Source: an uncultured Lentisphaeraceae bacterium
Lineage (GTDB): Bacteria > Verrucomicrobiota > Kiritimatiellia > RFP12 > UBA1067
NCBI GenBank assembly: GCA_964636295.1
Contig: CAZWQY010000005.1
Span: 47,496 to 111,495, forward strand
DNA: 64,000 nt
Direction: 5' to 3'
In this document: piece by piece, positions 2,654-38,355 of the stretch
How the letters are laid out: every line of letters starts with the position of its first letter
How positions within the stretch are numbered: position 1 is the first letter of the stretch
Translations under genes and position numbers: made by a program
The notes under the pieces: model-generated
Told to the model about the DNA's origin: nothing
Databases searched by the model: none
The model's input: the letters and a program-made list of their open reading frames with translations, nothing else

Positions 2654-3238
<585 letters not shown>

Positions 3239-3324
3239 AACCCACCTCTTTTGGTTGTTGATGATTTGTGTATTCTACCACATTCCGCAGACGGAAAGCA
3301 AGCCGCCGGGCGACCGGGCGCACC

Positions 3325-5136
3325 TCAATGCTCCTTGATCGTCCCCTTCAAGACGGCGATGAAGGCCGACTGCGGCACGTTCACGTGGCCGAACTCCTTC
3401 ATGCGCGCCTTGCCGCGCTTCTGCTTTTCGAGCACCTTCATCTTGCGCGTGACGTCGCCGCCGTAGAGCTTCGCGAGCACGTCCTTTCGGAACGGGCGAA
3501 TGTCCTCGCGCGCAATGATCTCCTTGCCGATCGCCGCCTGCACGGGAATCTTGAACTGGTGCGGCGGAATCGTCTCGGCGAGCGCCTTGCACATCTGAAG
3601 CCCGCGCGTGCGCGCCTTGTCGCGGTGAACCATCGTCGCGAACGCATCGACCGTTTCGCCGTTGAGGAGAATGTCCATGCGCACGATGTCCGAGACCTGG
3701 TAGCCGTTCGGCTCGTAGTCCATCGAGGCGTAGCCGTGCGAGACGGACTTCAGCGTGTCGTGGAAGTCGATCAGGATTTCGTTGAGCGGCAGCCGGCAGT
3801 GGAGCATCACGCGCTTCGCGTCGATCGTTTCCGTCCCCTCGACGAGTCCGCGCCGATCCATCACGATGCGCATGACGTCGCCGATCGACTCCGACGGCGT
3901 GATGATGCGCGCCGTCAGGACTGGCTCGGAAATCGTCTCCAGGGCCGACGGATCGGGCATCTGGAGCGGATTGTCGAGATCCTTCTCCTCGCCGTTCTTG
4001 TACTTCAGCTTGTAGACGACGCCCGGCGACGTCGAGATGATGTCGAGGCCGAACTCGCGCCGCAGGCGCTCCTGCACGATCTCCATGTGCAGGAGTCCGA
4101 GAAAGCCGCAGCGGAAGCCGAAGCCAAGCGCTAGCGACGACTCATGATGGAACGTGAAGGCCGCGTCGTTGAGGTGAAGCTTCTCCAGCCCCGCCGCGAC
4201 CTTCGGAAACTCGTCCGTCGACATCGGGTAGATGCCGCAGAACACGGTCGGGCGAATGTCCTGGAAGCCCGGCAGCGGCTCGGTCGCGCCGAGCTTCGCC
4301 GTCGTCACCGTGTCGCCGATCTTGATCTCGCTCGGATCCTTCACCGTGCCGACGATGTAGCCGACCTCGCCCGCCGAGAGGCGGTCGACGGGCTTCTTCG
4401 TCGGCGAGAAGATGCCGACCTCGTGCACGGTCGTCGAGACGCCCGAGCCAAGGAACTTCACGTTCTGCCCGGCGGCGAGCGCGCCGTCCATCACGCGCAC
4501 GTAGGTAATCACGCCCCGGAACTCGTCGAAGACCGAATCGAAGACGAGCGCGCGAAGCGGCGCCTCGACGCCGCGCGTCTCCGGCGGCGGAATGCGCGTC
4601 ACGATCGCCTCCAGCACGGCGGGGCAGCCGACGCCCGTCTTCGCCGAGACGAGCAGCGGCTCGTCCATCGGAATGGCGAGGATGTCCTCGATCTCGCGCG
4701 AGACCTCCTTCACGTCCGCGCCCGGCAGATCGACCTTGTTGAGGACGGGCACGATCTCAAGTTTCGCGTCCTGCGCAAAGTACGTGTTCGCGACCGTCTG
4801 CGCCTCCACGCCCTGCGCGGCATCGACGACGAGCAGCGCGCCCTCGCACGCGCCCATCGAGCGGCTGACCTCGTAGGCGAAGTCCACATGGCCAGGCGTG
4901 TCGAGGAGATTGAAGAGATACGTCTTTCCGTCCTTCGCCGTGTAGTGCATCGAGACGGGGTGCGACTTGATCGTGATGCCGCGCTCGCGCTCAAGATCCA
5001 TCGCGTCGAGCGTCTGCTCCTTGAGCTCGCGCGACGAGATCGCGTGCGTCAGTTCGAGGATGCGGTCGGAAAGCGTCGTCTTGCCGTGATCGACGTGGGC
5101 GATGATGCAGAAGTTGCGGATGTGTTCCAGTCTCAT
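3325..5136 (-). CDS. lepA: Elongation factor 4 (LepA)
   Basis: IRNFCIIAHVDHGKTTL, ERERGITIK, DTPGHVDF, GFRCGFLGLLH, LYGGDVTRKMK. Start at ATG 5136. Confidence 0.98.
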   Translation of the reverse strand: MRLEHIRNFCIIAHVDHGKTTLSDRILELTHAISSRELKEQTLDAMDLERERGITIKSHPVSMHYTAKDGKTYLFNLLDTPGHVDFAYEVSRSMGACEGALLVVDAAQGVEAQTVANTYFAQDAKLEIVPVLNKVDLPGADVKEVSREIEDILAIPMDEPLLVSAKTGVGCPAVLEAIVTRIPPPETRGVEAPLRALVFDSVFDEFRGVITYVRVMDGALAAGQNVKFLGSGVSTTVHEVGIFSPTKKPVDRLSAGEVGYIVGTVKDPSEIKIGDTVTTAKLGATEPLPGFQDIRPTVFCGIYPMSTDEFPKVAAGLEKLHLNDAAFTFHHESSLALGFGFRCGFLGLLHMEIVQERLRREFGLDIISTSPGVVYKLKYKNGEEKDLDNPLQMPDPSALETISEPVLTARIITPSESIGDVMRIVMDRRGLVEGTETIDAKRVMLHCRLPLNEILIDFHDTLKSVSHGYASMDYEPNGYQVSDIVRMDILLNGETVDAFATMVHRDKARTRGLQMCKALAETIPPHQFKIPVQAAIGKEIIAREDIRPFRKDVLAKLYGGDVTRKMKVLEKQKRGKARMKEFGHVNVPQSAFIAVLKGTIKEH

Positions 5137-5155
5137 GCTGCGCGGTTCCGTTCCC

Positions 5156-6367
5156 TTACCGGACAAAGGACTGCACGGCGCGCCGGAAGCCCTCGGCGCT
5201 GCGGGCGATGATCGCCTCGTCGACGCTGCAGCAGATGCGGACGTAGCCCGCGAAGCCGAAGCCGCTTCCCGGCACGACGAGGATGCGCTCCTTCACGAGC
5301 GCATCGACGAACGCGACGTCGTCGGCGACGGGGCTTTTCGCGAAGAAGTAGAACGCCCCCTTCGGCAGCGCGAACTCGACGCCCGCCTCCGTCAGCACCT
5401 TCGCCATCAGCTTGCGCCGACGGTCGTAGACGTCCAGGTCAACCGTCTCGTCCACAAGCGCGGCCGCCAGCCGCTGCCCGATGACGGGCGCGTTCACGTA
5501 GCCGAGCGTGCGGTTCGTGAGCGTGACGGCCTGCACGAGCGACGCCTGGCCAGGCATGTCGGGATTCGCGACGAAATAGCCGATGCGCTCGCCCGCGAGC
5601 GAGAGCGTCTTCGAGAACGAGCCGAGGACGCACGCCCACTTCGTGAGCGGCAGGATCGCCGGCACCGTCGCGCCGTCGAAGGCGAACGCGCGATACGGCT
5701 CGTCGGAGAGGAGGAAGAGCGGACGCGCCCCGTCCGTCGCCGCGCGCCGCGCGTTCTCGGAATCGACGAGCGCGGCGATCTGCGCCAGGACGTCGCGCGG
5801 ATAGATGCAGCCGGTCGGATTGTTCGGCGAGTTGACGATGATCGCGCGCGTCTTCGGCGTGATCGCCGCCGCAATCCCCGCCACGTCGGGCAGGAAGGCC
5901 GGCGGAAGGGACGGCACCGTCTTGAGGACGCCGCCGAAGTGTCCGCAATAGGAACCGTACTCGACGAAGTAGGGCGCGGGCGTGATGATCTCGTCGCCCG
6001 GCTCGACGACCGCGCGGAAGAAGCTCACCATCGCACCCGCCGCGCCGACGGTCATCACGACGTCCTTCGCCGCGACGGGCGTCTCCTGCTGACGCGAGAG
6101 GAAGCCGGCCATCGCCTCGCGGACGGACGGGATGCCGGCGTTCGGGCAGTAGCCGAGGCCGAGCGGCTTGACGGCCGCGTCCGCCAGCCGAATCAGCTCG
6201 TCGCGCGTCCGTGGCGGCGGCGGCACGTCGGGGTTGCCAAGCGAGAAGTCGCAGACGGCGTCCTCGCCGAACTGGCGCTTGAGCTCAAGGCCCCGCTCGA
6301 ACATCTTGCGAATGAAACTGGACCCCGCCATCGCGCGGGCAATCTCGCCTGTGACCGTCTGCATCAT
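5156..6367 (-). CDS. PLP-dependent aminotransferase class I/II (aspartate aminotransferase-like)
   Basis: SSFIRKMFE, FSLGNPD, NSPNNPTG, SDEPY, SFSKTLSLAGERIG (PLP lysine). Confidence 0.9.
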   Translation of the reverse strand: MMQTVTGEIARAMAGSSFIRKMFERGLELKRQFGEDAVCDFSLGNPDVPPPPRTRDELIRLADAAVKPLGLGYCPNAGIPSVREAMAGFLSRQQETPVAAKDVVMTVGAAGAMVSFFRAVVEPGDEIITPAPYFVEYGSYCGHFGGVLKTVPSLPPAFLPDVAGIAAAITPKTRAIIVNSPNNPTGCIYPRDVLAQIAALVDSENARRAATDGARPLFLLSDEPYRAFAFDGATVPAILPLTKWACVLGSFSKTLSLAGERIGYFVANPDMPGQASLVQAVTLTNRTLGYVNAPVIGQRLAAALVDETVDLDVYDRRRKLMAKVLTEAGVEFALPKGAFYFFAKSPVADDVAFVDALVKERILVVPGSGFGFAGYVRICCSVDEAIIARSAEGFRRAVQSFVR

Positions 6368-15440: not shown

Positions 15441-15920
15441 TCAGACGGCGACGTACGGGTCGCCGCAGAGCGAACAGATCGCGCCGTCATGCACGGGCGC
15501 GCCGCAGTTCGGGCAACGCTTCTCAAGAACTTCGCCGCAAAAGGCGCAGAACGTGCCGCCGACCGGATCGGCCTTCGCCCGGTCCGGCAAAAGGAACGTG
15601 CGGCCCTCGACCTCATAAGGATGGTTCGACGGACAGTGCGGATTCGGACAGAAGCCGCGCACGGCCTCCAGCGGCAGACGATGCGCGGGAAGCGACGGCG
15701 AGACGGCCGTCGGCTCTTCCGGCGGCGTCAGTTCGACGCCAAACTTCTTCGCGAGCTTTTCGATGACCTCGTCGTTCAGCTTCGTGCCGTCGCCCTGCTC
15801 GAACATGGAGAGCGCCGACTGCTTGCAGCCGACCTCGGCGGCCACGACGCTCTGCGAAAGCTTCGCCGCGCGCCGTGCCTCCTTGATCTTCAGGCAAACA
15901 ACTGGATTGAGTTCTGTCAC
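15441..15920 (-). CDS. XRE-family HTH fused to double zinc-ribbon-like Cys clusters
   Basis: IKEARRAAKLSQSVVAAEVGCKQSALSMFEQG HTH, then CPNPHC, CAFC, CPNC, CSLC. Confidence 0.85.
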   Translation of the reverse strand: MTELNPVVCLKIKEARRAAKLSQSVVAAEVGCKQSALSMFEQGDGTKLNDEVIEKLAKKFGVELTPPEEPTAVSPSLPAHRLPLEAVRGFCPNPHCPSNHPYEVEGRTFLLPDRAKADPVGGTFCAFCGEVLEKRCPNCGAPVHDGAICSLCGDPYVAV

Positions 15921-15965: not shown

Positions 15966-16046
15966 TTATCAACACTATCAACAGATTTATCAACTTGTAA
16001 ACAAGATTATCAACTTGTGAACACGAATTTGTTGATATGTTGATTC
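15966..16046. repeat. Dense array of 8 DnaA-box-like 9-mers
   Basis: Forward: TTATCAACA 15966, CTATCAACA 15975, TTATCAACT 15987, TTGTAAACA 15995, TTATCAACT 16007, TTGTGAACA 16015. Inverted: ATATCAACA 16030-16038, GAATCAACA 16038-16046. Confidence 0.75.
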
Positions 16047-16154: not shown

Positions 16155-17486
16155 ATGAAACGAAACAGCATAAAACCACGCACGTTCCTCGCCGCGTTCG
16201 CGCTCGCCGCCGCGACGGCCGCCGTCGCGAGCGGCACGAACGACCTTTCCGTCACGGCCGGTGCCGAGGTGCGCCTCCGTTATGACGTGACGGATCACCT
16301 GCCCAACGCCAAGCGCGGCGAAGCGGACGACTCCAACTACGCCCGCATCCGCATTCGTCCGTGGATTCGCACGACCTACGCGGACTACGGCATTTTTCTT
16401 CGGCTCTCGGACGAGTTTCGCCACTACAACCGCCCGGAATCGAATTCGTCCAAGCAACGCTGGCCGGACGTTCTCTTCATCGACAACCTCTACTTCACGG
16501 CGAACAGCCTCTTCGACGGCGCGCTTGACCTGAATGTCGGGCGTCAGGACATGGCGTTCGGCGCGAAGCGCATTCTCTCGGACGGCGTCGGCGGCGATGG
16601 CTCGCGCGCGGCGTACTTTGACGCGCTACGGCTCACCTGGCACGCGGACGAGGCGCGGACGCTCGACGCCTTCGCCCTCTACCAGGCGAAGAAGGACTGG
16701 ATGCCGACGCTCGGAAAGGAGCACGAGAACGGCAAGGAACCGCACGCCTATGACACGACGGGCTACAGACAGGACGAGTTCGGCGCGGGCCTCTACTGGC
16801 AGGATCGCGCGCACAAGGACTTCGGCTATGACGCCTACTACGTGGCCAAGCGCGAAATCCGCAACCGTGACTCAAAATACCGGAGCGAGGGCGGGCACGC
16901 CGACACGCACACGTTCGGCGTCCGCTTGCTGCCGCGCTTCAGCGAAACGCTGAGCGGCGAAGTCGAATTCGCCGGACAGGCCGGTTCGCACAACCTCTTT
17001 GCGGGACAAGCCTACGGCGGACTCACCTACGCGCCCAAGGCCGACTGCAAGCCGACGTTCACCGGCGCGTGCTGGGTTCTCTCCGGCGATGACGAAGGCG
17101 GACGCGGCAAGCACGCCTGGCACGCGGTCTTCAACCGCGAGACGGGACTGGGCGAATCCATCGCCCCGATGTACGAGAAGTACAACTACACGAACCTCAT
17201 CTATCCGCACCTCGCCTTCGGCTGCAACGTCGCCTCGTTCTCGTCCGTCAAGTTCCAGGCCGGCCCGATGTACACGGCCGTTCAGGAAGACGACGCCGGC
17301 AGCTTTCGCGGTCTGTATGCGCAAGTCAAGTACACGGTCAGCCCCGCCAAGCTCCTCGGTATCGATCTCCTGCACGGCGGCAAGTTTTCCCTGCAGGGCG
17401 AATACTTCGGCAAGGGCGACTACTTCAAGGACGGTTCCGACCACGACGCGCTCTTCGCCCGCGCCGAACTGGCCTGGAACTTCTGA
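16155..17486 (+). CDS. Outer-membrane beta-barrel, alginate-export (AlgE-like) family
   Basis: Signal peptide, RIRIRPW, LFIDNLYF, VGRQDMAFGAKRILSDG, FDALRLTW, amphipathic strands and C-terminal ARAELAWNF. Confidence 0.75.
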   Translation: MKRNSIKPRTFLAAFALAAATAAVASGTNDLSVTAGAEVRLRYDVTDHLPNAKRGEADDSNYARIRIRPWIRTTYADYGIFLRLSDEFRHYNRPESNSSKQRWPDVLFIDNLYFTANSLFDGALDLNVGRQDMAFGAKRILSDGVGGDGSRAAYFDALRLTWHADEARTLDAFALYQAKKDWMPTLGKEHENGKEPHAYDTTGYRQDEFGAGLYWQDRAHKDFGYDAYYVAKREIRNRDSKYRSEGGHADTHTFGVRLLPRFSETLSGEVEFAGQAGSHNLFAGQAYGGLTYAPKADCKPTFTGACWVLSGDDEGGRGKHAWHAVFNRETGLGESIAPMYEKYNYTNLIYPHLAFGCNVASFSSVKFQAGPMYTAVQEDDAGSFRGLYAQVKYTVSPAKLLGIDLLHGGKFSLQGEYFGKGDYFKDGSDHDALFARAELAWNF

Positions 17487-17501
17487 CGTCTGCCCGAATG
17501 G

Positions 17502-17556
17502 TTTAACGAACGTCTAACCCAAATGACATTCGATTCCAACACGGAAAGTCCATACT
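17502..17556 (+). promoter_or_regulatory. Pho-box-like promoter 2 (pstS)
   Basis: TTTAAC 17502, TCTAAC 17513, TGACAT 17524, TCCAAC 17535 (exact 11-bp period), a 10-nt spacer, CATACT 17551. Confidence 0.75.
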
Positions 17557-17590
17557 GTGCGCAGACACATAAGGAAAGGATGAACAAAAG

Positions 17591-18481
17591 ATGAACGCAA
17601 CAGCAAAGTCAATTCTCCTCGCACTCGGCGCGGCCGTGGCAACCCTGGCCGCCACGGCGGCAGAACGTCTGGAACTCAATGGCGCAGGCGGCAGCTTCCC
17701 GGCCCCACTCTACCAGAAGTGGGCCTACGCCTACACGCAGTCGGGACTCGGCGCAAAGGTCAACTACCAGTCCGTCGGATCCTCCGCCGGCATCAGCCAG
17801 ATCAAGGCCAGCACGGTGGATTTCGCGGGCACGGACGCGCCGCTTTCGGACGCCGCGTGCCAGGAAGCGGGACTTGAGCAGTTCCACATGGTCTCCGGCG
17901 CCGTCGTCCCAGCCGTCAACCTGCCGAGCGTACCGAACGGAAAGCTGACGCTCGACGGCGCGACGCTTGCGGACATCTACCTCGGCAAGATCACGCGCTG
18001 GAACGACGCGCGAATCGCGGCGCTCAATCCGTCGCTGACGCTTCCCGACCTGAAGATTACGGTCGTGCATCGCGGCGACGGTTCGGGCACAACGCACATC
18101 TTCACGACCTACCTCTCGTCCGTCTCGTCCGAGTGGAAGGCGCGCTTCGGCGCATCGACGCAGCTGAAGTGGCCCTGCGGAATGGCCGGGCAAAAGAATC
18201 CCGGCGTGTGCAACGCCGTCCGCCGCGTCAAGGGCGCGATTGGCTACACGGAATACACCTTCGCGCTGGAGTCAAGGCTGAATGTCGCTCGCCTCGCCGT
18301 GAACGGCAAGGTCGAGGAGCCGACGGCGGACGAATGGCCCATTCTCGGCAAGACCTACATCCTGACGCGCAAGGACACGCCCGCCGAGAAGAAGGCCGCG
18401 CTCAAGGGCTACTTCGACTGGTGCTTCGCCCACGGCGGCCCGACGGCCCAGCAACTCCACTACATTCCCGTCACGCGCTGA
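17591..18481 (+). CDS. pstS: Phosphate ABC transporter substrate-binding protein (shortened)
   Basis: GAGGSFPAPLYQKW, NYQSVGSSAGI, VDFAGTDAPL, VVHRGDGSGTT, GAIGYTE, WPI. Confidence 0.9.
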   Translation: MNATAKSILLALGAAVATLAATAAERLELNGAGGSFPAPLYQKWAYAYTQSGLGAKVNYQSVGSSAGISQIKASTVDFAGTDAPLSDAACQEAGLEQFHMVSGAVVPAVNLPSVPNGKLTLDGATLADIYLGKITRWNDARIAALNPSLTLPDLKITVVHRGDGSGTTHIFTTYLSSVSSEWKARFGASTQLKWPCGMAGQKNPGVCNAVRRVKGAIGYTEYTFALESRLNVARLAVNGKVEEPTADEWPILGKTYILTRKDTPAEKKAALKGYFDWCFAHGGPTAQQLHYIPVTR

Positions 18482-18517
18482 TTCACCGCGCGAGCAAGAC
18501 GGGTCAAATGGCCCTGC

Positions 18518-18554
18518 AAATTTCAGCCCTGCTGAAACAGCAGGGCTGAAATTT
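18518..18554. terminator. 17-bp perfect stem-loop after pstS
   Basis: AAATTTCAGCCCTGCTG-AAA-CAGCAGGGCTGAAATTT, with T/A-rich flanks on both sides. Confidence 0.7.
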
Positions 18555-18588
18555 TGAAAATAAAAAAGAAATGTTCTCATGCATCCCC

Positions 18589-18617
18589 TTGTATTTTCAC
18601 ATGATTTCAACTATACT
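18589..18617 (+). promoter_or_regulatory. Sigma70-like promoter of the dinJ-yafQ-type operon
   Basis: TTGTAT-17 bp-TATACT. SD GAAAGGA precedes ATG 18648. Confidence 0.6.
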
Positions 18618-18647
18618 ACACCAGTTTTCACGAAAGGACACTTGATT

Positions 18648-18917
18648 ATGGCAAATCTCACTATTTCCATGCCGGCAGCTGACAAGGCCGCCATTTCCGC
18701 TTTCTGCGATGCGACGGGCTTCACCATTTCCTCGCTCTTCAACGTCTTCACGAAGGCCGTCTTGCGCGAACGCCGCCTTCCCTTTCAAATCATCCTGCCG
18801 GAAGTTCCGAATGCCGAGACCCGTGCCGCGATGGAAGAAGGCGACCGCATCTCCCATGATCCAACTGCGAAGGGGTATACCGACCTGAATGAATTCTGGA
18901 AGGATCTCGACAAATGA
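18648..18917 (+). CDS. RelB/DinJ-family antitoxin
   Basis: MANLTISM...LFNVFTKAVLRERRLPF...PNAETRAAMEE...GYTDLNEFWKDL. Overlaps the toxin start (ATGA). Confidence 0.85.
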   Translation: MANLTISMPAADKAAISAFCDATGFTISSLFNVFTKAVLRERRLPFQIILPEVPNAETRAAMEEGDRISHDPTAKGYTDLNEFWKDLDK

Positions 18918-19192
18918 AATACACGGTTAAGAATACTTCTACATTCAAGAAGGACTACAAGCGCGCCAAAAAGCGAGGTCTTGATCTCGAAAAACTTCGA
19001 CGCACCGTTGAACTTCTCGCGGACGGCAAGCCTCTCCCCGCGTCCCTGCGCGACCACGCTCTGACGGGCAATTGGGCACAGCATCGCGAATGTCATCTTG
19101 CACCTGACTGGCTTCTCATCTACCAGATTTACGAAAACGTCCTTGTCCTTGAATTGACGCGCACAGGTTCACACGCCGACCTTCTCGAATAA
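18914..19192 (+). CDS. YafQ-family (RelE superfamily) mRNA interferase toxin
   Basis: FKKDYKRAKKRG, DHALTGNW, RECHLAPDWLLIY, RTGSHADL. Confidence 0.9.
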   Translation: MKYTVKNTSTFKKDYKRAKKRGLDLEKLRRTVELLADGKPLPASLRDHALTGNWAQHRECHLAPDWLLIYQIYENVLVLELTRTGSHADLLE

Positions 19193-19197
19193 ATTGA

Positions 19198-20424
19198 TTA
19201 GACCCTTAGAGCATCATGCAATTCATGCAGGATGGACTTGGCTGTTCCAATGCCGTACCGATCCGCGACAGTCAACAGGTCTGCATCAGAAATGTTTTTC
19301 TGCTTCCCATTGACGGACAATTGGTGAACCCCGGCCTGCGCACTCCACGGATCTTCACTCGGAAAATCAGACCCCATTAAGTCGTAGGCGGGTGCAAGTT
19401 CCCACATTTCGCTTTCTACCGTATCATTTCCTTTATTGGCCAAAGAACGAAGGCGGAACGAGAAGTTCTTCGTGTGATCGTCAAACTCACCCGTCAGGAT
19501 ATTGAACGCCATACGGCGAAACAGTTGCTCCTGCGCCTCATATCCAAGACCCAGTTCGTCGGCTACCGTGAACAGTTGTTCGTAACGCCTGTATTCCTGC
19601 GGCGTCTCAGCCGGTAAATGAGCCATCGCCGACAGCGTCGCCAAATGGTGGCGGACACCTCCCTCTCGATCAAACCGCTTCGTCATAAAGTGCTTGAGTC
19701 CATCGAGTTCATAAAGACACGATTCGCTCATCTCAATGCCAGATGCCAACGCTTGACAATAATGAGCATATTCAGTTTCTCCGCGCCATGGATATTCCTT
19801 CCGCGTAAACTTGATGATCCAATGCTCGTAGCCTTCTGGCAACTCACAATCTCCTAAGAGGAACGTATTTTCAATTCGATTCCAGCCAATGACCGCTTTT
19901 GCCTGCGCACCACCAGCGGACGATCCGAGGCGGATGATTTCACGCAAAGCATCCTCGCCATGCACCGTCGCCAATTCGCCGTTTAAGACCCGACGAGCGG
20001 ACTCGACAAGTTTGCGCATATCTACAACTGTCGGATATCCGCCTGGACTACGATCAGGTTCGTAAGTCAAGGCTCCTAACGTCCGCTTTCCCAAATACGC
20101 CAATCGGTCAAGCGGCGTAATTTCATCTCGTCTCAATCCATGCTCAATGAGCCAATGGTCTATTAATCCCGTGCCAAATGTATCTGGAAGCGAATCCGCA
20201 AAAATCGGCGGCAACCCATTATAAGCCGCATATGGCAAATCACCAAAGACATACGGTTCGGAGCGAAGCGGCATCATCAGCGGCGCAATCTCAATGCCAG
20301 ACCTGAGAAACGCCTTGTCGTAGCGAAAGGCATAAACGCCCCGCCGAGGAGATTCGACAAGCGTCCCCACGCGCCATCCCCACAGCGAGACATTAAGACG
20401 CGCAACATGTCGAAACACCGTCAT
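19198..20424 (-). CDS. HipA-family toxin kinase with N-terminal couple domain
   Basis: FADSLPD.FG, LAYLGKRTLGAL, SSAGGAQAKA, WIIKF, TKRFDR, DDHTKNFSF, APAYDL. More AT-rich than the flanks. Confidence 0.9.
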   Translation of the reverse strand: MTVFRHVARLNVSLWGWRVGTLVESPRRGVYAFRYDKAFLRSGIEIAPLMMPLRSEPYVFGDLPYAAYNGLPPIFADSLPDTFGTGLIDHWLIEHGLRRDEITPLDRLAYLGKRTLGALTYEPDRSPGGYPTVVDMRKLVESARRVLNGELATVHGEDALREIIRLGSSAGGAQAKAVIGWNRIENTFLLGDCELPEGYEHWIIKFTRKEYPWRGETEYAHYCQALASGIEMSESCLYELDGLKHFMTKRFDREGGVRHHLATLSAMAHLPAETPQEYRRYEQLFTVADELGLGYEAQEQLFRRMAFNILTGEFDDHTKNFSFRLRSLANKGNDTVESEMWELAPAYDLMGSDFPSEDPWSAQAGVHQLSVNGKQKNISDADLLTVADRYGIGTAKSILHELHDALRV

Positions 20425-20759
20425 ACTCTTTCCGCTCCCTTCGGCTGCCGCACCAGTGCCAGATGACGCCTCTGCGGCGAGGCTCGCTGGCGTTTCTTCG
20501 GTTCAACGCGATCAAACAAGGCATCGTCTATTTCCGGCGGAGCAATTCCCAAAATCCAGTCTGTTCGGCGAAGTGATCGGCAGACCTCGAGAAGCGTGAC
20601 CGTCGAGGCGTTTTTTCCTCCTTCAAGATTTCGAAGCGCCGTCAGGGAAATCCCGCTGCGCGCCGCCAAGGTTTCCAACGACAAGTTTGCCGCCAACCGT
20701 GCCGCACGTACGCTTTCACCCAAAGCCGCCAACATTTCGCTCCGTGTCTGATAAATCAT
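20421..20759 (-). CDS. HTH (XRE/HipB-like) antitoxin
   Basis: LGESVRAARLAANLSLETLAARSGISLTALRNLEGG. Stop overlaps the hipA-type start. TGCTATAAT at 20791-20799. Confidence 0.82.
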   Translation of the reverse strand: MIYQTRSEMLAALGESVRAARLAANLSLETLAARSGISLTALRNLEGGKNASTVTLLEVCRSLRRTDWILGIAPPEIDDALFDRVEPKKRQRASPQRRHLALVRQPKGAERV

Positions 20760-20892
20760 AACAGCCTTTATAAAAACAGTAATTTCCAATATTATAGCAT
20801 AACTGTTTTCTTAAAAGCAATCATCTATCTGATATTTTCCATGAACTCAGAATAAATGAATCCTTTTTATTTCCCTGTACGCGCCGCACACC

Positions 20893-20947
20893 TTTAACGC
20901 GATTTTCATCGGGCGCTGATTTGGCTCTAACAGGAAAAGCGCATACT
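20893..20947 (+). promoter_or_regulatory. Pho-box-like promoter 3 (pstB, leaderless)
   Basis: TTTAAC 20893, TTTCAT 20904, GCTGAT 20915, TCTAAC 20926 (11-bp period), a 10-nt spacer, CATACT 20942, ATG 8 nt later. Confidence 0.75.
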
Positions 20948-20955
20948 GTGCGGCG

Positions 20956-21717
20956 ATGAACCGGAACTACAAGATTGTCACGCGAAACCTGAATTTCTTC
21001 TACGGCGAGCATCAGGCGCTGTTCGACAATGGTCTCGCCATCGAGGCCAACAAGATTACGGCCGTCATCGGCCCTTCCGGATGCGGCAAGTCAACCCATC
21101 TGCGCATCTACAACCGCATCTACGAACTCCATCGCGGCCAGCGCGCAACAGGCGAAGTCTTGCTCGACGGACAGAACATCCTCGCACCCGACGTCGATCT
21201 TCTCGACTTGCGCCGCCGCGTCGGCATGATCTTCCAGAAGCCGACGCCCTTTCCGATGAGCGTCTTCGACAATGTCGCCTATCCGCTCCGCCTCCACTTC
21301 AAGATGAGCCGAACCGAACTCGCACACCGTGTCGAGGAAGCGCTTAAAGGCGCGGCACTCTGGGACGAGGTCAAGGACAAGCTCAACGAACCCGGCACGG
21401 CCCTTTCGGGCGGACAGCAACAACGCCTCTGCATCGCCCGCGCAATCGCAGCCGAACCCGAAGTCTTGCTGATGGACGAACCCACGAGCGCAATCGATCC
21501 CGTCGGCACGCTGAAAATCGAAGAACTGATGGCGCGTCTCCGCACACGCTTCACGATTGTCATCGTCACGCACAACATGCAACAGGCCTCGCGCATCTCC
21601 GACGTGACGGCATTTTTCTACAAGGGCCACATCGTCGAGGTCGGCCCGACAAAGGAAATCTTCACCCACCCCAAAAACAAGCAAACGGAAGACTACGTCT
21701 CCGGGAGATTCGGCTGA
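20956..21717 (+). CDS. pstB: Phosphate ABC transporter ATP-binding protein
   Basis: [62 protein letters not shown]. Confidence 0.95.
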
Positions 21718-21718
21718 C

Positions 21719-22087
21719 ATGACAATGAAAATTCATTTTGAGGAGGCCCTCGCGGCCGTCGAGAAAGACCTTCACGAAAACGCGGAACGCGCCGAAACGG
21801 CCGTTCGGACAGCCCTGCGTGCCCTCGCGAACGAAGACGCGGCACTCGCCGATTCCGTCATCGAAGGAGACACGGCAATCGATCTCGCCGAAAACGCGAT
21901 CGAGGAAAAGTGCCTCGACATCTTCGCGCTCTATCAGCCCGTGGCGACTGATCTCCGCCGCATCGTCACAATTCTCAAGACGAACGGACAGATCGAACGT
22001 CTTGGCGACCTTGCGACGAACATCGCCGAAGACGTCATTTACCTGAAACGCGCGTCAATCGTCCGCCATGACGTCCTGAAAAAGTAA
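21719..22087 (+). CDS. phoU: PhoU-like protein, single repeat (122 aa)
   Basis: D.AID..E..IEEKC, QPVATDLRRI, IERLGDLATNIAEDVIYL. About half the usual length. Confidence 0.8.
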   Translation: MTMKIHFEEALAAVEKDLHENAERAETAVRTALRALANEDAALADSVIEGDTAIDLAENAIEEKCLDIFALYQPVATDLRRIVTILKTNGQIERLGDLATNIAEDVIYLKRASIVRHDVLKK

Positions 22088-24075: not shown

Positions 24076-25170
24076 TCAGTTGATCCGAAGCGGCATCAGC
24101 ACGTAGAGGAACGGAATCGAGCACTTGATCACGGCCGGCGAATGTCCGTCCGTCAAGTTCATGGTCACCTCATCGTCGTCAATCGACTTGAGGCAGTCCA
24201 TCACGTAGGACGGGTTGAACAGAATCTCGATCTTCTCGCCGGCGTACTTGATCGGCACTTCGTCCTTCGCCTCGCCGATGTCGGACGCGGCCGACGTGAC
24301 GGTGAGCTTTCCTTCCGAGAAGATGAGCTTCGTCGAATGCGCCTCGTCCATCGTCATGACGCTCGCGCGATCCAGCGCATCCAGCAACAGCTGGCGATCG
24401 ACCTCGATGCGCTCCTTCGGCTCGACGGGAATGACCTGACGGTAGTTCGGGTAGGCGTCGTCCATCAGCTTCGAGTAGATCAGCACGCTTTCGAGCTTGA
24501 AGCAGATCTGCGACTTCTGAACCATCATCGAGAGGTCGCCCTCGCCGTTCAGCGAACGCTGAAGTTCGCCCACGGCCTTCGACGGCAGGATGATGTCCTT
24601 CTCCGCGTCCTTCGGAAACTCGATCTCCTGCTCGACGAGAGCCAGACGGCGACCGTCCGTCGCGACCATCGTCAGCTTCGAGTCCTTGAAGCTCAGGAGA
24701 ACACCCTTGAGCGTCCGGCGCGTGTCGTCCTGGCTCGCCGCGTAGGAGACCTTGCGCAGCATGTCGCGGAACGTCGCCTGCTGAATCGTGTAGACGAACG
24801 CCTCCTCGTCCTGCGGCAGCTTCGGAAACTCGGATTCGGGAAGGCCCGCGACCTTGAACTTCGCATGCCCCGCGCAGATCGTCGCGCGATCCTTCGCGTC
24901 CGTCTCGAACTCGACCTCGCCCTCGGCCACTTTCGAGATCGCGTTGAAGAGAAGCTTCACGGGAATCGTCGTGCTGCCTTCCTCAAGAGCCTCGCACGGA
25001 CAGACGGCCTTGATCGAGATGTCGAGGTCGGTTGTCGTCATGACGAGTTCCTGACCCTTGACTTCCAGGAGAACGTTCTGGAGAATCGCGAGCGAAGCCT
25101 TTCCGCCAACGATGTTCTGGACGGACTTCAGCCCTTCGAGGAACTTGGAGCGAACGATCTTGAATTTCAT
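24076..25170 (-). CDS. dnaN: DNA polymerase III beta sliding clamp
   Basis: MKFKIVR, ILQNVLL, TTDLDISI, TRRTLKGV, VATDGRRLA, YPNYRQVIP, FNPSYVMD, YVLMPLR. Start at ATG 25170. Confidence 0.97.
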   Translation of the reverse strand: MKFKIVRSKFLEGLKSVQNIVGGKASLAILQNVLLEVKGQELVMTTTDLDISIKAVCPCEALEEGSTTIPVKLLFNAISKVAEGEVEFETDAKDRATICAGHAKFKVAGLPESEFPKLPQDEEAFVYTIQQATFRDMLRKVSYAASQDDTRRTLKGVLLSFKDSKLTMVATDGRRLALVEQEIEFPKDAEKDIILPSKAVGELQRSLNGEGDLSMMVQKSQICFKLESVLIYSKLMDDAYPNYRQVIPVEPKERIEVDRQLLLDALDRASVMTMDEAHSTKLIFSEGKLTVTSAASDIGEAKDEVPIKYAGEKIEILFNPSYVMDCLKSIDDDEVTMNLTDGHSPAVIKCSIPFLYVLMPLRIN

Positions 25171-25200
25171 TGTCTTTTCCTTCTGATGCGTCGTGTCGTT

Positions 25201-25437
25201 GAATTGTATCAAATACTACTAATTAAAGATAGAGTGATTTTTATTAGTATTAGGTTTGTTAATTGTGTTGACAAGTCGCGCACACCCCTTTAAAAACAGG
25301 CGGAACATCGCCTTCGCCCTGTTGACGGCACATTCGACATCCTAATGACGGACGTTGACGAATCGTCGTGCGCTGTTCATTCCTGTTCATAACTTGCCAA
25401 GTTGTCTTCACCCTGTTGTCAGTTCGTCTGCCAGTTG
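25201..25437. other. Candidate oriC unwinding region between dnaA and dnaN
   Basis: AT-rich 25201-25265. On the minus strand, box TTGTCAACA (25266-25274) is followed by trio-like TAATACTAATAA (25241-25252). Further box-like 9-mers at 25320 (CCGTCAACA), 25374 (GAATGAACA) and 25384 (TTATGAACA). Confidence 0.7.
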
Positions 25438-26856
25438 TCAATCGAGGTTGTCCTTGAGCGAACAGCCGAATTCGGCCAGAACTTCCTTGAGTATCGACTT
25501 GAGATCTGGTTCGACGTCGAGCCGTTTTTCGATGTTCTTGACGCCATGGAGAATCGTCGCGTGCGTCTTGCCGAAGGAACTGGCGATTTCCGGAAGGCTT
25601 CGCGTCGTGTACTTGCGTGAGATGTACATGGCCATCTGGCGCGGCGTGACGAGGGACTGCGTTCGCTCGGCGGAGAGAATCTGGTCGATCGAGACGTCGA
25701 ACCGCTTTGCGACGGACTGCTGAATCTCTTCGACGGTCAGCTTGCGCAGGGACTTCTCCTTCTCGATGTAGTCGCGCAGCATATGTGTCAGCACGTCGTT
25801 CGTGAGCGTCGTCGTCGATTCGACCATGCGGAAGATGCGGACGCGGTTCAAGGCCCCTTCCATCGCACGCACATGGCTCTTGATCGTGTCGGCGATGAAT
25901 TCGAGCGCGCTGTCGGGAATGGACGGCACCATCGTCTCTGACTTCTTCTTCAGAATCGCGAGGCGCGTCTCGTAGTTGGGCGACTCGATTTCCTGCACCA
26001 TGCCGCCCTCGAAGCGCGAGATGAGGCGCGTCTCGATGGACGGCAGATTCTTCGGCGCGACGTCGGATGTCATGACAATCTGGCGTTGCGCTTGCTGAAG
26101 GGCGTTGAAGGTGTTGAAGAACTCTTCCTGAAACTGCTTGCCCTTCTGAAGGAACTGCACGTCATCGACCATCAGGAGATCCATCTGTCGATAACGCTTG
26201 CGGAAACTCTCGAGGTTGTTGTTTTGAAGGGCGTTCACGTATTCGTTCAGGAACGTCTCGGCCGTGAGGTAGCAGATGTTCAGCGCGGGATTCTTCTTCT
26301 TGAGCGCATTGCCGATCGCCTGCATGAGGTGCGTCTTGCCAAGGCCCGTGCCGCCGTGGATGAAAAGCGGATTGTAGCCACTCTTGCCGGGCGTCGCGAC
26401 GACGCCTTGTGCGGCGGCAAGCGCCCAGCTGTTCGACTTGCCGCTCACGAAATTTTCGAACGTGTACTCCTCGTTCAGCGGCATGGTCGAGGCAAGCGTC
26501 GAGGCCCTGGCCGATGTGCGCGGCGGATTCGGCGGCGGAGCGGGAATTTCCACTGGAACGACGACCGGCGGCTTGGCCCGTTCGCTTGTGCGAAACTCAA
26601 TGTCGATCGATCCTTCCGACGAAACGAGCTCAAGGCACTTCTTCAGCTTGTCCGAATACTTGTCGCGCAGGAAGTCTGCCGTGTAGGCATTCGTGAGAAA
26701 AATGACGAAGCGACCGTTTTCGCGCGTGACGGACGTGATCGTCGAGAAATAGCGCTCGACCTGACCGCGTTCTTCGGCGGACGACAGTGTGGAAAGGTAG
26801 ATTTGCATCGCCCTTTCCCACGTTTCCTTTGATTTGATGTCGATGGTTTCGCTCAT
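25438..26856 (-). CDS. dnaA: Chromosomal replication initiator DnaA
   Basis: YTFENFVSG.SN, YNPLFIHGGTGLGKTHL, LMVDDVQFL, EEFFNTFN, RLISRF, VRAMEGAL, PRQMAMY. Start at ATG 26856. Confidence 0.98.
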   Translation of the reverse strand: MSETIDIKSKETWERAMQIYLSTLSSAEERGQVERYFSTITSVTRENGRFVIFLTNAYTADFLRDKYSDKLKKCLELVSSEGSIDIEFRTSERAKPPVVVPVEIPAPPPNPPRTSARASTLASTMPLNEEYTFENFVSGKSNSWALAAAQGVVATPGKSGYNPLFIHGGTGLGKTHLMQAIGNALKKKNPALNICYLTAETFLNEYVNALQNNNLESFRKRYRQMDLLMVDDVQFLQKGKQFQEEFFNTFNALQQAQRQIVMTSDVAPKNLPSIETRLISRFEGGMVQEIESPNYETRLAILKKKSETMVPSIPDSALEFIADTIKSHVRAMEGALNRVRIFRMVESTTTLTNDVLTHMLRDYIEKEKSLRKLTVEEIQQSVAKRFDVSIDQILSAERTQSLVTPRQMAMYISRKYTTRSLPEIASSFGKTHATILHGVKNIEKRLDVEPDLKSILKEVLAEFGCSLKDNLD

Positions 26857-26883: not shown

Positions 26884-26979
26884 ATAATACCATAAATTTG
26901 ACGCACGTGGCAAAAGGAGAAATCAACGCCTGTCTTCAAGTTATCAACATGAGATGTTTATAACTTGAGAGTATCCACG
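26884..26979 (-). promoter_or_regulatory. dnaA promoter with upstream DnaA-box-like sites
   Basis: TTGCCA-18 bp-TATTAT with extended TGG. TTATCAACA at 26941, inverted TTATAAACA at 26955-26963, GTATCCACG at 26971. Confidence 0.6.
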
Positions 26980-27002: not shown

Positions 27003-28898
27003 TTAGACATGCCCGCGCTTGATGAGGACGGCGAGCACGGCGATGTCGGCCGGATTGACGCCTGGAATGCGGCTTGCCTGGGCGAGGGTTTCCGGGCGAT
27101 GCTTCTTCAGTTTTTCGCGGCTCTCATAGCGAACGGCTGTGCATTTGTCATAGTCCAGCCACTGTGGCAGAACGAGGGCTTCGTCCTTCTTGGCTTGTGC
27201 GGCGGCCTTTTCCTCTTGCGCGATGTACGGGGCATACTGATGCATAATCAACGCTTCTTGATTTATCCGCCCTTCGCGTGTGATTTGGTCGCACGAGCGC
27301 GTGTCAAGTTCCGTTTGACTCTTTCTCCCTCGTTGTGCGAGATCAGCGACTTTGGCTTGAATGGTTGTCCATTCGTCTTCAATGGCGGCAAGGGTTGCCT
27401 TTGGTAAAATGTCCACGCGCTTGGCGGCGGCGAGCAGACGATAACAGGCGTTGTCCTGGCGAAGAATCAAACGTCGCTCAGCGCGGCTTGTAAACATGCG
27501 ATAGGGTTCATCCGTACCCTTCGTGACGAGATCGTCGATCATCACGCCGAGATAGGCATCCTGTCGGCTTAAGATGAATGGAGATTCTTTTCGGACGGCG
27601 AACACGGCATTGATCCCTGCGAGAATGCCCTGTCCTGCCGCTTCTTCATAGCCGGTTGTCCCGTTGATCTGTCCCGCAAAGTAAAGTCCAGCAATTCGCT
27701 TCGATTCAAGGGTATGGCGAAGTTCACGCGCATCAATGCTGTCGTATTCGATGGCATAGGCGTACGCCAAGAACTCCGCTTCTTCAAGTCCTTCAACGGA
27801 ATGAACCATGTCACGCTGAACCGTTTCAGGAAGCGAGCAACTCAATCCATTCGGATAGATGATGTCCCCACGGCTGTCTTCAGGTTCAAGAATGACATGG
27901 TGATGAGGTGCATCCGAAAATCGGACGATCTTATCTTCGATGCTGGGACAGTAGCGAACGCCCGTTCCACTGATTTGACCACCATAAAGAGATGACTTGT
28001 CGAGGTTCGAGCGGATGATTTCGTGCGTTCGGCTATTCGTCCGCGTCATCCAGCAAGGAAGAATGGGCAGATTGTTCCATGTGGAACACAGGTGGAGGCG
28101 GTCAGATGTGGCTGTTCCACGTGGAACACAGGTGGAGGCGGTCAGATGCGGTTGTTCCACGTGGAACACAGGCGGATGAGAACCCGTGTTGGAAAAATCC
28201 GTATGTTCCACGTGGAACAGCGGGCGTGGTGTGTCTCCATCTTGCCGAATACAGCGCGAAAAGTCGCAGGTCGAGGCCTTGAGACGCGGAGGTGTACCTG
28301 TTTTTAGACGAATCAACGCGAATCCGAGATCTTCAAGATTGCGCGAGAGCAGATTGACGGCGGGACGGCCATCGCCGCCGCTTTCTTGGCTTTTGTCACC
28401 GATCCAGATCCGTCCACGGAGAGTTGTCCCGGTCGTCAGAATGACGGTTTTCGATGAAATGATTCCGTTGTTTTCGGTCTGAACACCCGTGATGCGTTGC
28501 GCGGCATCCGTCCGAATGCCAATGACGGCATCTTCAAGAACTGTCAGATTCTCCTGTGCCGCGATGACAGTCTGCATTCGTTCGGCGTATTCCTTCTTCG
28601 CACACTGGCAACGTGTCGCCCAGACGGCCGGCCCACGACTTCTGTTGAGCGTTTTCGCCTGAAGGGCGGTTTGGTCGGCGTTCACGCCCATTTCGCCGCC
28701 AAGGGCATCCAGTTCCGAAACAAGGTGGCTCTTGGCAAGACCGCCGATTGACGGGTTGCAAGGCATTCTGGCAATTGCGTCACGCTGTGTGGTGACGAGC
28801 AAAGTGCGTGCCTTCATGCGCGCGGCGGCGAGAGCCGCCTCGACGCCGGCGTGTCCACCGCCCACGACAAGAACCTCAAAGGCATCCATCAGTTTCAT
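27003..28898 (-). CDS. mnmG: tRNA uridine-5-carboxymethylaminomethyl modification enzyme MnmG (GidA) with an internal parS-derived insertion
   Basis: [73 protein letters not shown]. Start at ATG 28898, 6 nt after TGCTATAAT. Confidence 0.96.
28073..28219. repeat. Cluster of four parS sites (16-bp palindromes) inside mnmG
   Basis: TGTTCCATGTGGAACA 28073-28088. Perfect TGTTCCACGTGGAACA at 28113, 28153 and 28204. The first three sit in a 40-bp tandem unit. Confidence 0.92.
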
Positions 28899-28904
28899 GA
28901 CCGA

Positions 28905-29120
28905 ATTATAGCACATTCTCAACAGGATTGTGAACAAAAAAGATACAGAGATTATGCAACAGATAAAAGGCTATTTCTTCATAAATAATGCGGAATATTT
29001 ATGTTTTTGTCATTTTTAATTTTTGTCAAGGGAAAAGATGTCAAATCATGTCTACACTTATTGAAAAGTTATCAACAACGCCTCTCCAACTTGCTCTTTT
29101 TAGCCGAATTATGCTATACT
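28905..29120. promoter_or_regulatory. AT-rich divergent promoter region with DnaA-box-like sites at the gene-strand switch
   Basis: -10 TGCTATAAT (minus, 28905-28913) and TGCTATACT (plus, 29112-29120). TTCTCAACA 28916, TTGTGAACA 28928, TTATCAACA 29069. Very AT-rich at about 28965-29030. Confidence 0.65.
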
Positions 29121-38276: not shown

Positions 38277-38355
38277 GCACCTGTGGTGGAATGGCAGACA
38301 CGGTGGATTTAGGTTCCACTGCGCAAGCGTGGGGGTTCGAGTCCCTCCAGGTGCA
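38277..38355 (+). tRNA. tRNA-Leu (anticodon TAG), CCA not encoded
   Basis: Acceptor stem GCACCTG/CAGGTGC, D-loop TGGAATGGCAGAC, anticodon arm GTGGA-TTTAGGT-TCCAC, long variable arm, GGTTCGAGTCC. Confidence 0.95.

Follow-up and report, generated by a model that had tools for sequence, protein, structure and literature searches.

An altered DnaA recognition helix and a lineage-specific DnaA box at a probable Kiritimatiellae replication origin

The recognition of DnaA boxes is among the most conserved protein-DNA codes of bacteria. Whether this code can shift within a lineage is the question raised by a 64,000-nt stretch of DNA from an uncultured Lentisphaeraceae bacterium (contig CAZWQY010000005.1 of assembly GCA_964636295.1, positions 47,496 to 111,495; hereafter the window), whose dnaA gene carries changes in the helix that reads the box. 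An earlier note on this DNA, made from its letters alone, proposed that these changes co-evolved with a lineage-specific box. Known lineage variants of the box alter base 3, base 5 or its length, and the 9-bp variants listed keep C at base 6 (PMC10225481, PMC5043019). The comparative analysis presented here suggests that the window probably contains a Kiritimatiellae chromosomal origin region, in which a DnaA with an altered helix would be matched to TTRTCWACA boxes having A or T in place of C at base 6.

The recognition helix of the window's DnaA

The 472-aa protein is unambiguously DnaA: it has both the AAA+ domain III and the C-terminal helix-turn-helix (HTH) domain IV, and scores well above the TIGR00362 cut-off of 344 bits. 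Its best homologues are annotated as Kiritimatiellae. The gene and the codons under discussion are located as follows:

25438-26856, minus strand: dnaA coding sequence, 472 aa (Bac_DnaA, E = 3e-63; Bac_DnaA_C, E = 1e-23; TIGR00362, 466 bits)
25546-25569, minus strand: codons for KTHATILH, the start of the recognition helix, corresponding to RDHTTVLH of E. coli (R432-H439) by HMMER alignment and translation

The last 60 residues are encoded by positions 25438-25620 of the minus strand; their translation, followed by a stop codon, is SRKYTTRSLPEIASSFGKTHATILHGVKNIEKRLDVEPDLKSILKEVLAEFGCSLKDNLD and includes SLPEIASSFGKTHATILHG. When domain IV is aligned by HMMER with the E. coli domain IV-DNA crystal chain 1J1V (E = 3e-15), the D-to-T and T-to-A changes described by the earlier note are recovered as D433T and T435A, together with R432K. 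The alignment, FG-KTHATILHG, leaves the turn one residue shorter than in E. coli and equal in length to that of M. tuberculosis (3PVP). Base-specific contacts of E. coli domain IV are made by R399, P423, D433, H434, T435 and H439 (PMC2533591); the recognition helix reads TnCACA, while R399 reads TTA through the minor groove (PMC5742627). Four of these six residues have kept equivalents in the window, R399 (within AERTQS), P423, H434 and H439, as has L438. The other two are replaced, D433 by T (T, S or K in the clade) and T435 by A. The window protein is still a DnaA; only its readout residues differ.

Relatives were gathered by exact-protein look-ups and by a query restricted to domain IV on metagenome contigs, which gave 92 related loci, or 66 once near-duplicates were removed. 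Controls came from a genome scan with a full-length DnaA alignment, a query that favoured universal patterns (GLGKTHLM, ISRFEGGM); the loci listed from it belong mostly to unrelated phyla and include few relatives. The pattern [K/R]-[T/S/K]-H-[A/S]-T is present in 120/120 best homologues (Kiritimatiellae, 68-100% identity) and in 92/92 related loci, and a G[G/N][R/K]DH[T/S]TV helix in 55 of the 80 loci listed from the genome scan. Across the loci sampled, the variant helix (K-[T/S/K]-H-A-T-I versus R-D-H-T-T-V) is a property of the clade and no quirk of one genome.

Origin module, promoter pair and box array

The genes mnmG, dnaA, dnaN and rlmL follow one another on the minus strand. A V-shaped minimum of cumulative G-C skew lies at 24934, and on this ground the window is considered to span a replication origin. 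The dnaA-dnaN spacer, which measures 244-271 bp in relatives, has a conserved layout consisting of same-orientation weak boxes, a terminator-like hairpin, two abutting 9-mers, a 3-nt spacer ending in C, DnaA-trios, an AT-rich tract, an extended -10 element and dnaN. Its elements in the window are:

25320-25392, minus strand: four weaker same-orientation boxes, TTATGAACA, GAATGAACA, TCGTCAACG and CCGTCAACA
25298-25313, minus strand: terminator-like hairpin followed by a T run, likely the dnaA terminator, upstream of the tandem boxes
25266-25274, minus strand: origin DnaA box 1, trio-distal, TTGTCAACA (16.2 bits with the weight matrix described below, the top score of the window)
25257-25265, minus strand: origin DnaA box 2, trio-proximal, degenerate, CAATTAACA, abutting box 1; usually TTRTCWACA in relatives
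25242-25253, plus strand: DnaA-trios, 5'-TATTAGTATTAG-3', that is 3'-GAT TAT GAT TAT-5', in the same register as in Firmicute controls
25196-25253: AT-rich tract, 22% GC, candidate unwinding element that includes the trios
25203-25211, minus strand: extended -10 element TGATACAAT, the putative dnaN promoter; GTATTTGATACAAT is conserved in nearly all relatives

The hairpin flank TGTTTTTAAAGGGG is conserved among the closest relatives, and a NNTCAACAG site among the weaker boxes is conserved in the alignment. No RNA family was detected in the spacers with Rfam.

In the published basal unwinding system, tandem boxes are followed by a spacer, most often about 13 bp long, and by three or more trios with A in the middle, the first of which is mostly 3'-GAT-5' (PMC8287927; PMC6669920); the trio-based search rule asks for three or more NAN trios no further than 16 bp from a box (PMC8287927). 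The boxes of the window point toward at least three trios, which read CTA ATA CTA ATA on the dnaA-sense strand and are separated from box 2 by the 3-nt spacer at 25254-25256. The gap between box 1 and the trios is 12-13 bp, which matches the published mode (PMC8287927), and the AT-rich tract lies at the switch in strand skew. Since the spacer layout is that of the published system, the two 9-mers correspond in position to DnaA boxes 6 and 7 of Bacillus. The B. subtilis incC origin (boxes 6 and 7 with trios; PMC6669920, PMC8287927) likewise has a dnaA-dnaN site, tandem boxes toward the trios, a 12-13 bp gap, a 3'-GAT-5' first trio and an AT-rich tract. However, the box sequence of the window differs, its two boxes abut without a gap, and the function of its module is a predicted one. 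The architecture is found in 53 of the 66 non-redundant loci, and Firmicute controls show the same layout and register (TTATCCACA TATCCACAA GCC CTA CTA CTA TTA).

Two further elements lie upstream of dnaA:

26884-26913, minus strand: promoter-like TTGCCA-18-TG-TATTAT, likely the dnaA promoter; the TGGTATTAT element is conserved
26941-26963: converging box pair TTATCAACA-N5-TGTTTATAA, located some 100 nt before the dnaA start, the right half-site reading TTATAAACA on the minus strand

The converging pair recurs as TTAT[C/T/A][A/T]ACA-N5-inverse about 100-130 nt upstream of the dnaA start in 57/63 non-redundant loci, with a spacing of exactly N5 in 52 of the 57.

DnaA boxes in the relatives were located by position, beside the trios or as the dnaA promoter pair, with no assumption on bases 3, 5 and 6. 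The 53 non-redundant loci with a clear trio run provided 106 origin boxes, in which bases 1, 2, 4, 7, 8 and 9 are T, T, T, A, C and A at 85-99%, base 3 is G (62%) or A (37%) and base 5 is C (83%). Base 6 is A in 61, T in 29, G in 10 and C in 6 of these boxes; it is A 28, T 18, C 6 and G 1 in the trio-distal box and A 33, T 11, G 9 and C 0 in the trio-proximal one. The promoter pair is a second, independent class of site; among its 114 half-sites, base 6 is A 95, T 17, G 2 and C 0, and the preference at base 3 is A rather than the G of the origin boxes. The DnaA box of the clade, as read from these counts, is TTRTCWACA, with W at base 6 (A more than T; G and C rare) and R at base 3. The claim of the earlier note that A occupies position 6 was therefore right as to the clade-wide loss of the canonical C and too narrow as to the base, since A is not fixed.

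The R-type box of E. coli and B. subtilis (TTATNCACA, read by the RDHTTV helix; 1J1V) shares with the clade a 9-bp asymmetric site and the residues R399, P423, H434, L438 and H439. Measured against the R-type consensus TTWTNCACA, T1, T2, T4, A7, C8 and A9 are present (85-100% conserved), whereas C at position 6 has given way to A or T (C in 6/106 origin boxes and 0/114 promoter half-sites), base 3 is R, and D433 and T435 are replaced. Similarly, an open search pattern (TTNTNNACA, 9 nt, a spacer and at least 4 trios, with bases 3, 5 and 6 free) returned C6 in 18/24 canonical-helix controls versus 2/29 clade loci (Fisher p = 3e-7, kinship ignored). De novo clustering of 7-mers yielded ATCCACA in controls and TATCAAC in the window, and nothing clear in distant PVC loci (Verrucomicrobiota with an RDHGTV helix, L003, L030).

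Within the window, the four box-like sites quoted by the earlier note were all recovered: TTATCAACA at 26941 (plus strand), TTGTCAACA at 25266 (minus), TTATGAACA at 25384 (minus) and TTGTGAACA at 28928 (plus). Its observation that the canonical box is lacking nearby, with GTATCCACG at 26971-26979 as the closest match, extends further, as no exact TTATCCACA occurs anywhere in the 64 kb. TTRTSAACA occurs 7 times, where 0.56 is expected from shuffles (0/100 shuffles reach 7), and TATCAAC also occurs 7 times, 7/7 intergenic. A weight matrix trained on relatives only gave 21 matches at or above the threshold of 9 bits, 16 of them within four short intergenic regions.

The strongest box cluster of the window, absent from the earlier note, is found in one of these regions, at 15.9-16.1 kb, with 8 weight-matrix matches against 0.23 expected (0/2000 simulations reach 8):

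15966-16046: dense array of 8-9 boxes, TTATCAACA, CTATCAACA, TTATCAACT (twice), TTGTAAACA, TTGTGAACA, ATATCAACA and GAATCAACA
15441-15920, minus strand: gene for a 159-aa HTH_3 and double-zinc-ribbon protein, which always adjoins the array

The array is made up of asymmetric units, direct and inverted, whose spacing varies irregularly (9-23 nt). In nearly all relatives with enough flanking sequence, an intergenic region 3.2-3.4 kb beyond the stop codon of dnaA contains 4-9 boxes, with a 216-aa coiled-coil-like gene on one side and the HTH_3/double-zinc-ribbon gene on the other. The array and HTH gene of the window lie 9.4 kb from dnaA, with about 6 kb of extra genes in between. These extra genes (16155-22087) encode porin-like, PstS-like, relB, hipA with a hipB-like HTH, PstB-like and phoU products; the block is partly of lower GC (0.54-0.55 at 18-22 kb) and splits the 216-aa gene from the HTH/zinc-ribbon gene, which are about 120 bp apart in most relatives. 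The HTH protein matched no characterised family. We read the array as a putative DnaA-box cluster that would control the HTH gene or titrate DnaA, like the B. subtilis DnaA-box clusters (PMC3245932) or E. coli datA, which are also dense intergenic arrays near the origin able to regulate a neighbour or titrate DnaA. Unlike these, the array of the clade is always paired with the HTH/zinc-ribbon gene. An origin at the array itself was also considered and rejected: the array is flanked by neither trios nor an AT-rich tract, the skew minimum is 9 kb off, and in relatives the array lies at a distance of 3.3 kb from dnaA, whereas the dnaA-dnaN spacer is invariably the site of the trio module.

Weighing a changed specificity against its rivals

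The proposed mechanism would start with the binding of DnaA to the two abutting boxes at 25257-25274. ATP-DnaA would then spread along the plus-strand trios and open the 22%-GC tract that immediately precedes dnaN, in the manner of Bacillus-type basal unwinding. The converging pair at 26941-26963 would autoregulate dnaA, while the 8-9-box array would control the HTH/zinc-ribbon gene that follows it or titrate DnaA. Without the T435 hydroxyl, and with D433 replaced as well, a C:G-specific contact at base 6 would be lost, leaving a preference for A:T or T:A. More tentatively, with a likelihood somewhat short of even, Kiritimatiellia and some xHAT neighbours among PVC bacteria may have rewired the base readout of DnaA from the otherwise invariant C6 to A/T because of the change of T435 to Ala and the loss of D433, in which case the array-linked HTH/zinc-ribbon gene could be a hitherto unrecognised, DnaA-controlled regulator of replication or the cell cycle.

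Several observations weigh against a changed specificity. The loci share ancestry, so that box-base counts are not independent events. A7 is invariant in the clade though residue 433 varies between T, S and K, and the reported contact of D433, made together with L438, is with base pair 7 (PMC8235120). A perfect TTATCCACA is the trio-distal box of L084, L089 and L091, three relatives whose helix is KTHAT, and canonical-helix loci deviate in the other direction at the same box position, with TTTTCAACA in the Clostridia L023 and L025 and TTATCTACA in L009. Finally, the strict N5 inverted pair and the linkage of the array to the HTH gene would also fit a dimeric repressor.

Part of this evidence would be explained if DnaA specificity were unchanged and TTATCCACA still optimal, with sub-optimal boxes tuning initiation and helix changes being neutral or affecting affinity only. 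This explanation, which we consider unlikely, accounts for the perfect TTATCCACA at box 1 of the three KTHAT relatives and for the occasional A or T at base 6 of this box in canonical-helix Clostridia. Weak-site origins have a precedent in Caulobacter, whose origin is reportedly built from weak sites (Taylor et al. 2011). The explanation accommodates less well the finding that C is the rarest base or absent, 6/106 in origin boxes and 0/114 in promoter half-sites (binomial tail versus 20% = 3e-5 and 9e-12, independence assumed). If any weak base were sufficient, G would be as frequent as A or T, which it is not; autoregulatory promoter boxes are normally near consensus, and two of the six base-contacting residues are replaced clade-wide. 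The earlier note had held that canonical boxes in relatives with the KTHAT helix would speak against its proposal. Such boxes do exist in L084, L089 and L091, at one box each, and C6 is therefore tolerated, but the clade consensus is still W6; the two of these loci that were checked, L084 and L089, have A at base 6 in both promoter half-sites. In five further relatives the distal origin box reads TTGTCCACA. As to base 6 of the distal box within the clade, T is most frequent where residue 433 is S (12/19), and C is confined to T433 (6/19), a pattern confounded by ancestry. Individual boxes deviate in every lineage, and it is the consensus alone that differs.

A second possibility, to which we give marginally less weight still, is that the TTATCAACA sites of the promoter pair and of the 16-kb array are operators of the HTH_3/zinc-ribbon protein, alone or shared with DnaA, which would leave only the trio-adjacent boxes as DnaA sites. 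An inverted repeat with strict N5 spacing, as in 52/57 loci, is a typical site for dimeric HTH repressors; in the window the array has remained beside the HTH gene although some 6 kb of other genes now separates it from dnaA; and the promoter pair and origin boxes differ in their preference at base 3. However, these sites are the same 9-mer as the trio-adjacent boxes and match the DnaA box at 8/9 bases, the asymmetric, irregularly spaced units of the array in both orientations are as in DnaA-box clusters, and in Acidobacteriota, too, DnaA boxes of the lineage's own type form a converging pair ahead of dnaA; the lack of a characterised family for the HTH protein also speaks against an operator role. 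By comparison, it is very improbable that composition alone makes AT-rich spacers rich in TTATCAACA-like words. Single spacers of the window are indeed only modestly enriched (2 versus about 0.2-0.3 expected, p = 0.02-0.03), but the array far exceeds its simulated expectation, the register relative to the trios is fixed, and conservation of the positions across DnaA proteins of 47-100% identity contradicts such an origin.

If the specificity has indeed changed, the two substitutions may not contribute equally. Acidobacteriota controls have H433 with T or S at 435, and their TTTTCCACA boxes keep C6. In lineages outside the clade with xHAT or xHAN helices, W6 boxes are likewise in use, as far as their loci indicate: in Pontiella sulfatireligans (RNHATI) dnaN is immediately preceded by TTATCTACA-GACC-trios, L033 (KNHATV) has TTATTAACA and TTATCAACA, and L015 (RTHANI) has TTATTAACA. 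Because A7 is invariant, Acidobacteriota keep C6 and Ala435 lineages use W6, T435A is a better candidate than D433T for the change at base 6. This evidence from a few lineages points to T435A, rather than D433T, as probably linked to base 6. Hence the co-evolution proposed by the earlier note is supported insofar as the box differs clade-wide alongside the helix, with T435A the likelier contributor of the two.

Other lineages were observed to have their own arrangements. The Acidobacteriota DnaA reads GGKHH[S/T]TV (L038, L058, L061 and L068; also L053 and L021) and goes with TTTTCCACA boxes, including a conserved converging pair TTTTCCACA-N2-TGTGGAAAA that lies about 100-230 nt ahead of the dnaA reading frame and, in L053, a box-plus-trio module. 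Verrucomicrobiota with an RDHGTV helix (Gly435; L016, L022, L035, L041, L048, L050, L054, L066 and L076) have few box-like sites near dnaA, either TT[A/G]TTCACA or TTATTAACA, and no clear origin was found near dnaA in these loci.

Surrounding sequences, known systems and significance

Boxes are also present on the far side of mnmG:

28916-29077, plus strand: boxes TTCTCAACA, TTGTGAACA, ATGTCTACA and TTATCAACA in the AT-rich spacer upstream of mnmG

A single TATCAAC is found at the equivalent place in L081, L083, L084 and L087. The mnmG gene itself (27003-28898, minus strand) contains four parS-like palindromes, TGTTCCACGTGGAACA (one of them TGTTCCATGTGGAACA), at 28073-28219 and 40-51 nt apart. 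They form an in-frame insertion in an intact open reading frame, encode FHVEH, CSTWN and VPRGT repeats and split the GIDA match in two. Relatives have 1-5 such palindromes in an mnmG of 592-860 aa. These palindromes may constitute a centromere array within a coding sequence beside the origin. L084 has an 860-aa mnmG (2878-5460) in which the GIDA domain is matched twice, and in L083 (7390-8689) gene prediction gave no more than a 350-aa piece of mnmG, preceded by a 1.3-kb gap with no called gene. These cases suggest an inserted repeat region that expands and at times interferes with the calling of genes. Repeats of other kinds are seen in L002 (9008-9450), a distant relative (UBA3783) with about 15 tandem GCTAGC/GCTAGAA-containing repeats directly upstream of the dnaA promoter boxes, and in L001, with twelve clustered AGTTGGA/CTCCAAC copies at about 1590-2000. 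The sole Rfam match of the window is a single tRNA gene at 38277-38355 (plus strand), in a stretch of lower GC (0.53 at 38-40 kb).

A precedent for a lineage-wide change of the box that tracks substitutions at the start of helix 5 is provided by the Epsilonproteobacterial box TCATTCACN (PMC5043019). There, however, base 5 changes, C6 is kept and the D433-H434 dyad is conserved, whereas D433 is lost in the clade studied here. Other lineage-specific boxes include the cyanobacterial TTTTCCACA, the Thermotoga AAACCTACCACC (PMC10225481) and the actinobacterial TTGTCCACA, and species or phylum consensus boxes are used by origin finders. The G at base 3 of the clade resembles the actinobacterial box, but the 9-bp TTTTCCACA and TTGTCCACA keep C6. 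The literature on DnaA boxes in Kiritimatiellae and PVC phyla was searched, and neither a W6 consensus nor a description of a Kiritimatiellia origin was found in it.

The consequences for origin finding depend on the method. A scan with the E. coli box allowing at most 1 mismatch gives three intergenic matches in the window, none of them in the dnaA-dnaN spacer; such a scan under-calls boxes and could pick the wrong spacer. The published trio-based search permits 2-4 mismatches (PMC8287927) and would for that reason find TTGTCAACA. The expectation of the earlier note that standard finders would miss this origin thus applies to the former kind of search, which sees no box in the unwinding spacer, and not to the latter. 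The clade motif TTRTCWACA is advisable for the annotation of origins in gut, rumen and marine PVC Kiritimatiellae.

As comparative genomics, the finding is solid. It extends the box-plus-trio unwinding module to Kiritimatiellia genomes, and the loss of C6 together with two of the six base-contacting residues offers a natural experiment for the DnaA recognition code. If true, the changed readout would represent a natural specificity switch in the most conserved initiator-DNA contact of bacteria.

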